64,000 nt of DNA from Escherichia coli O157:H7 (lineage in GTDB: Bacteria; Pseudomonadota; Gammaproteobacteria; Enterobacterales; Enterobacteriaceae): assembly GCF_013167455.1 (NCBI RefSeq), contig NZ_CP038328.1. One strand, given 5' to 3'. The notes beneath the pieces were generated by a model. That model was given only the letters and a program-made list of their open reading frames with translations. It did not search any database and was not told the origin of the DNA. Below, one piece after another: positions 50,548 to 50,824 of the stretch. Each line of letters opens with the position of its first letter. Position 1 is the stretch's first letter. The position numbers and the translations under genes were made by a program.

Positions 50548-50824
50548 ATGATTCAAAGGGATATTGAACTCGGGACAATTTTCAAAGGATGTAAAACTTG
50601 CACAAAAGCGTCATAAGGATATGAATAAATTGAAATATCTTATGACGCTTCTTATCAATAATACTTTACCGCTTCCAGCTGTTTATAAAGACCACCCGCT
50701 GCAAGGTTCATGGAAAGGTTATCGCGATGCTCATGTCGAACCGGACTGGATCCTGATTTACAAACTTACCGATAAACTTTTACGATTTGAGAGAACTGGA
50801 ACTCACGCGGCGCTCTTTGGGTAA
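50548..50824 (+). pseudogene. yafQ: Toxin YafQ, frameshifted near the 5' end
   Basis: ATG at 50548 reads MIQRDIELGTIFKGCKTCTKAS then stop; the YafQ-homologous frame (..SGQFSKDVKLAQKRHKDMNKL...HAALFG) is offset by one nucleotide and has only a TTG start at 50564. Confidence 0.7.

Follow-up and report, generated by a model that had tools for sequence, protein, structure and literature searches.

A 2-bp deletion in the toxin gene yafQ beside an intact dinJ antitoxin gene in typical Escherichia coli O157:H7

Introduction

Does typical E. coli O157:H7 still have a working DinJ-YafQ toxin-antitoxin system? In K-12, the system consists of a ribbon-helix-helix antitoxin of the RelB family and a ribosome-dependent mRNA interferase of the RelE/YoeB family (PDB 4Q2U, 4ML0, and 4ML2). 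The first-pass annotation of a 64,000-nt stretch of the O157:H7 chromosome (the window) had proposed that dinJ is intact whereas yafQ carries a frameshift, the toxin being either dead or made only in an N-terminally shortened form. We find that this alternative frames the problem correctly, and we examine here the lesion, what could still be translated from it, and when it arose.

Results and Discussion

The dinJ-yafQ operon of O157:H7

The operon lies on the chromosome in the order yafL, dinJ, yafQ, dpaA, with the following features:

50219..50247, plus strand: promoter-like site of dinJ-yafQ, TTGTCG and TACAAT with a 17-nt spacer (consensus scan; putative function)
50253..50268, plus strand: LexA-box-like palindrome CTGAATAAATATACAG, CTG-N10-CAG, 3' of the -10 hexamer and 5' of the dinJ Shine-Dalgarno (SD) sequence (read from the sequence)
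50271, plus strand: derived C>T SNP in the dinJ 5'-UTR, 1 nt 5' of the SD AGGAG at 50272-50276 (column comparison)
50285..50545, plus strand: dinJ antitoxin gene, intact, 86 aa, ribbon-helix-helix RelB family (ORF list and Pfam)
50548..50824, plus strand: yafQ toxin pseudogene, 277 bp against the normal 279 bp (alignments and the RefSeq label "frameshifted")
50548..50616, plus strand: leftover ORF from the native coupled ATG, 7 native and 15 out-of-frame residues, ending in TAA (sequence and ORF list)
50567..50569, plus strand: junction of the 2-bp deletion in codon 8 (Tyr), where GAATAC has lost AT or TA (alignments)

The antitoxin gene is indeed intact, its 86-aa ORF matching the Pfam RelB family (PF04221, E=3.4e-34) in the upstream position of the antitoxin. 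At the DNA level, it is 100% identical to dinJ of O55:H7 CB9615, and the same RefSeq protein (WP_000729705.1) is found in both O157:H7 and O55:H7; two I>V changes, both natural polymorphisms, separate it from DinJ of K-12. The window and K-12 share the chromosomal site between yafL and dpaA, the operon layout, the promoter-like site, and the LexA-box-like site. The latter has the form of the SOS-box consensus (CTG-N10-CAG) and is a predicted LexA operator within the promoter region; it is unchanged with respect to the intact precursor allele described below, and the promoter-like site has the same sequence in the O55:H7 and K-12-type loci.

A 2-bp deletion in codon 8 of yafQ

As the first-pass annotation had reported, the frame opened by the ATG at 50548 ends early, after 22 codons (MIQRDIELGTIFKGCKTCTKAS), with a TAA at 50614-50616. 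Against a K-12-type genome and O55:H7 CB9615, yafQ aligns with exactly one indel, reference GATATTGAATACTCGG against GATATTGA--ACTCGG in the window, which converts GAA-TAC-TCG into GAA-C-TCG and hits the Tyr8 codon (TAC). This is just the 2-bp deletion in codon 8 that had been deduced from the K-12 YafQ N terminus (MIQRDIEYSGQYSKDV, correctly given); a reference alignment had been proposed as the check, and since it contains the indel, the alternative of an unbroken gene falls. The lost pair was not part of a dinucleotide repeat, and the placement of the gap is ambiguous by only 1 nt.

Downstream of the deletion, the YafQ sequence continues in the +1 frame (50564-50824), which matches the Pfam family YafQ_toxin (PF15738, E=1e-30, profile positions 6 to 88), while the 22-aa peptide from the ATG at 50548 has no Pfam match. 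With 2 bp gone from codon 8, the 92-aa toxin ORF of K-12 is broken: the native-ATG ORF stops after 22 codons, and the window holds no intact, coupled ORF for a YafQ-family RNase of the RelE fold. The locus is a degraded member of its family, a pseudo-module and not a complete DinJ-YafQ system.

The second difference from K-12 yafQ, TAT>TTT (Y12F), is no damage but natural variation, and TTT is the commoner form. It is found in O55:H7 and in all aligned intact alleles except that of K-12, and a TTT-bearing probe had at least 99% identity in 1671 records. Over the whole locus, a 701-bp probe matched O157:H7-type strains with 100% identity along its full 701 bp, most other genomes with ~98-99% identity across 703 bp, and K-12-type genomes with ~98.4% identity.

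Can any toxin still be made?

Three further features bear on translation of the downstream frame:

50564..50824, plus strand: YafQ frame from a TTG, putative 86-aa product without residues 1-6 and carrying E7M and Y8N (ORF list and Pfam)
50606-50617 and 50639-50650, plus strand: perfect 12-nt inverted repeat in yafQ, AAGCGTCATAAG / CTTATGACGCTT, whose extended hairpin (~-18 kcal/mol) encloses the ATG at 50621
50621..50824, plus strand: YafQ frame from an in-frame ATG (Met26), putative 67-aa product without helix alpha1 (start-site inspection)

The native yafQ ATG at 50548 follows the dinJ stop codon after 2 bases and has an SD (AGGAG) at a 6-nt gap. Ribosomes starting there would enter the wrong frame and halt after 22 codons, so that the majority would make only the 22-aa peptide. 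Since it is the coupled start with the good SD that leads to this stop, the YafQ ribonuclease would not be made in its normal form or amount. The best explanation of the locus, which we hold with considerable confidence, is that the 2-bp deletion in codon 8 has made yafQ a pseudogene of the chromosomal dinJ-yafQ operon, by toxin-first decay and with a presumed loss of toxicity. What speaks against a dead toxin is that the downstream frame is undamaged, that it still encodes all catalytic residues (H50, H63, D67, and H87; roles in PMC4652777), which matter only if they are translated, and that gene callers routinely predict 86-aa and 67-aa forms. Any translation into this frame could yield a partly active protein. 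The toxin is nevertheless most likely dead in typical O157:H7, a judgment that the sequence favors, given the poor position of both rescue starts.

The first rescue start is the TTG at 50564. The first-pass annotation had this right as to the frame, which runs from the TTG to the TAA at 50822-50824 and encodes 86 aa, but the TTG is not its only candidate start, as in-frame ATGs follow at 50621 (Met26) and 50642 (Met33). If the TTG were used, a shortened but active toxin would result and the module would work at a lower dose. The open frame with its YafQ_toxin match is consistent with such a product, which would keep all the catalytic residues together with helices alpha1 and alpha2, and there is an SD-like AAGGG upstream. 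However, this AAGGG is just ~1-3 nt from the TTG (the usual distance is ~5-9 nt), TTG is a weak start codon, and it lies within the ORF read from the strong coupled ATG, where the passage of elongating ribosomes would block it. Residues 1-6, the stretch ahead of helix alpha1, would also be missing from the product; going by the RelE/YoeB fold, the N-terminal residues (1-6 / 1-8) should form the first beta-strand of the sheet. Its presence as a database protein on at least 1000 contigs reflects gene-caller predictions and not a detected protein. We regard a working toxin from the TTG as distinctly unlikely. Single-sequence AlphaFold2 models of the 92-aa YafQ and the 86-aa product had pLDDT values of 57 and 61 and were all-helical, unlike the solved alpha/beta fold, and were therefore discarded.

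The second possibility is reinitiation at the ATG at 50621 after the 22-codon ORF, giving a nontoxic 67-aa YafQ fragment that may still bind DinJ and alter how stable it is or how well it represses. The ATG is 5 nt past the stop at 50614-50616, with an SD-like TAAGGA overlapping the stop, and the same 67-aa ORF was annotated in EDL933 (AAG54550.1). Against it, the SD-like site abuts the ATG, the ATG is buried in the ~-18 kcal/mol hairpin, and correct folding is doubtful for a fragment without helix alpha1 and the N-terminal strand. We give this reading very little credence. The basic patches of alpha1 (K14/K17 and K21/R22/K24) have been mutated to probe ribosome recognition, and alpha1 and alpha2 were judged important for recognition of the ribosomal A site (PMC4652777). 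The inverted repeat at 50606-50650 is present in every allele compared, and its hairpin might be related to the truncated dinJ-yafQ transcripts, with ends within the toxin ORF, described in a review (PMC7167474).

A comparable case is yafQ of Lactobacillus rhamnosus 1473, a natural allele that is missing the start codon and 5' end and has been reannotated from a downstream ATG or TTG (PMC6529426). In that species, YafQ without the N-terminal 33 residues almost lost its toxicity in experiments (PMC6529426). The deletion there is of 57 bp and costs 33 residues, whereas the best-case product of O157:H7 lacks only 6; the analogy thus fits the Met26 form better than the TTG form.

Conditional synthesis of a full-length toxin, by programmed +1 ribosomal frameshifting or by phase variation, is hardly credible. 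A +1 slip at GGG-A (50572-50575) is chemically possible and, judging from the sequence, would give a 91-aa near-native protein. The A site, however, presents no slow or stop codon, there is no correctly spaced stimulatory SD, and the context is no different in the intact precursor, which means that no signal has evolved. No programmed +1 frameshift motif was found in 50564-50616, and relatives carry the unshifted gene; programmed frameshifting was rejected for want of a signal. Phase variation by slippage was rejected as well, since the deletion does not lie in a repeat tract; ~296 records carry the allele unchanged, and no revertant was seen among the sampled carriers.

Prevalence and annotation of the deletion

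A 101-bp probe spanning the lesion had at least 99% identity in 296 complete-genome records, and among the sampled rows of these, the serotype label, where present, was always O157:H7. That the window owes the gap to faulty sequencing or assembly is a negligible possibility: beyond the general frequency of indel errors nothing speaks for it, and it is ruled out by the same allele in ~296 independently assembled complete genomes, where it is annotated as frameshifted, at a site that is no homopolymer.

The lesion is already known as an annotation. RefSeq/NCBI PGAP labels O157:H7 yafQ "frameshifted," and the public databases treat it in three conflicting ways, as an 86-aa "YafQ" (called on at least 1000 contigs), as a 67-aa "YafQ" (the original EDL933 annotation), and as a pseudogene. 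A full-text literature search found no paper reporting the O157:H7 yafQ frameshift. What is new here is small, namely, the placement of the deletion in the O55:H7 to O157:H7 series, the order of two mutations, and a catalogue of independent lesions.

Origin of the deletion

Used as a query, the intact O55:H7 allele was found at 100% identity in exactly 14 records:

O55:H7 with the precursor allele: CB9615, RM12579, USDA5905, DEC5A, DEC5B, DEC5D, DEC5E, TB182A
Atypical or early-branching O157 with the precursor allele: 493/89, LSU61, F3113, PV15-279 (yafQ annotated as intact, WP_000615979.1, in all four)
Two further records with the precursor allele: no serotype label

In this precursor allele, yafQ is intact (279 bp) and DinJ is the same as in the window (WP_000729705.1). 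Across 703 bp, CB9615 and the window differ only in the 2-bp deletion and in the C>T change at 50271, where K-12 also has a C. Comparison of the columns ordered the strains as follows:

C at 50271, intact yafQ: CB9615, 493/89, LSU61
T at 50271, intact yafQ: F3113, PV15-279
T at 50271, yafQ with the 2-bp deletion: the window (typical O157:H7)

Because F3113 and PV15-279 combine the SNP with an intact yafQ, the SNP is the older of the two mutations and preceded the deletion. Published phylogenomics puts LSU-61, as the intermediate, between O55:H7 and the two branches of O157 and ties PV15-279 to the G5101-type (GUD+) plasmid pO157_2 (PMC7175801), and the pO157 of F3113 clusters with that of PV15-279 (PMC10758439). 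Taken together, the distribution of the precursor, the order of the SNP, and these phylogenies indicate a one-time origin of the deletion on the final branch toward typical O157:H7. As a single, derived change of recent date, it followed the split from O55:H7, LSU61, the sorbitol-fermenting O157:NM (493/89), and the F3113/PV15-279 sublineage, and it appears to be fixed in the typical O157:H7 clade. The sequences of the carriers are identical and show no sign of relaxed constraint; in so young a clade, none would be expected. In the stepwise model, the SNP and the deletion provide clean, ordered markers for the last steps from O55:H7 to O157:H7.

Strain TR01, labeled O157:H7, has an intact yafQ. 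We rejected it as a revertant, since its dinJ allele is different (WP_000729704.1) and the 80 bp upstream of the promoter hold ~10 SNPs with respect to the O157/O55 type. These differences suggest that TR01 may be a recombinant at dinJ-yafQ or come from another lineage or background.

Other yafQ lesions and toxin-first decay

The gene has been broken independently in several E. coli lineages, in five other ways besides the deletion of O157:H7:

97-3250 group, 118-129 complete-genome records: 6-bp deletion (TATGAT) at about 50547-50552 of the window, yafQ ATG gone; dinJ intact
EM10-18-28: 1-bp deletion in yafQ; dinJ intact
2018-11-1BCC: 9-bp deletion and a stop codon in yafQ; dinJ intact
21F61: ~125-bp insertion splitting yafQ after ~27 codons; dinJ intact
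PEC414: IS1A-associated deletion removing dinJ and the 5' part of yafQ; dinJ lost

In the 97-3250 group, which we take to be O26:H11 Shiga-toxin-producing E. coli, RefSeq/PGAP calls an "intact" 95-aa YafQ from an ATT codon inside dinJ, a doubtful start. The insert of 21F61 may represent a small element of the REP or MITE kind. The whole dinJ-yafQ locus is absent from ~2100 of 5426 genomes (~39% of E. coli), in which yafL adjoins dpaA.

Four of the five other lesion types spare dinJ, which is the expected path of toxin-first decay for chromosomal toxin-antitoxin modules: loss of the toxin would be harmless, and loss of the antitoxin first would not. We see in O157:H7 an ordinary case of such decay, the loss of toxicity being presumed from the broken ORF. 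Decay that leaves an orphan antitoxin has been described for ccdO157 of E. coli and in other systems (PMC2654758; PMC7354431). The frameshifted YacB of Shigella flexneri and the parE pseudogene of Caulobacter, like ccdO157 and dinJ-yafQ, combine a small toxin lesion with a remaining antitoxin gene, in a pattern that differs between lineages within the species (PMC2654758; PMC7354431). They belong to other toxin families and loci, whereas the dinJ-yafQ lesion can be timed on a recent phylogeny that is well resolved. The independent yafQ lesions with dinJ spared make a tidy natural example of toxin-first decay and would be no surprise to the specialist.

What remains of the locus

With dinJ, its promoter, and the LexA box untouched, DinJ is probably still produced from the locus, which would now be, in all probability, an orphan antitoxin or regulator gene followed on its 3' side by an untranslated toxin remnant. 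In a transcriptome of O157:H7 Sakai, dinJ was upregulated 2.46-fold at the transition to stationary phase, which implies that an mRNA spanning the broken yafQ is produced; the locus was called an active toxin-antitoxin pair (PMC2241611). DinJ by itself, without YafQ, represses the dinJ promoter (PMC12301738), and a wider regulatory role, via cspE and RpoS, has been ascribed to it (PMC4996492; PMC7618764). The SNP at 50271 could change the translation of DinJ. A role of the orphan DinJ in anti-addiction against a plasmid-borne YafQ was rejected as unsupported: the locus was found on 16 of 72,556 plasmid records, most of them F-prime plasmids or mislabeled chromosomes, so that true plasmid-borne dinJ-yafQ is almost absent.

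It is also conceivable, if unlikely, that the loss of YafQ was selected on the typical-O157:H7 branch and that DinJ was kept as a stand-alone SOS-controlled regulator and not as an antitoxin. For K-12 lacking dinJ, YafQ-dependent slowing of growth at 18 C has been reported (PMC4996492), and selection could then have favored strains that grow better in the cold outside the host. The C>T change at 50271 and the 5' lesion of the 97-3250 group would, in that event, amount to a convergent rewiring of the locus in those pathogens.

Under the preferred reading of toxin-first decay, typical O157:H7 strains of the EDL933 and Sakai types should be left out of any count of working DinJ-YafQ modules, in which at least one O157:H7 transcriptome paper has included them (PMC2241611). 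The case is a caution for toxin-antitoxin inventories, of modest practical importance.

Neighboring genes

An Rfam scan of 49000-52000 detected no RNA gene overlapping dinJ-yafQ and gave only the REP-type naRNA4 (REP-derived nucleoid-associated RNA) at 49249-49326, outside the locus between rayT and yafL, with 64.8 bits, above the gathering score. The rayT gene (REP-associated tyrosine transposase, ~48653-49150, minus strand) is annotated with an internal stop in O157:H7 and O55:H7 and is intact in the K-12-type KLY; it is another pseudogene beside the dinJ-yafQ locus. The SOS-linked pair yafN (97 aa) and yafO (132 aa), at 44167-44861 on the minus strand, 6 kb from the broken yafQ, is intact.
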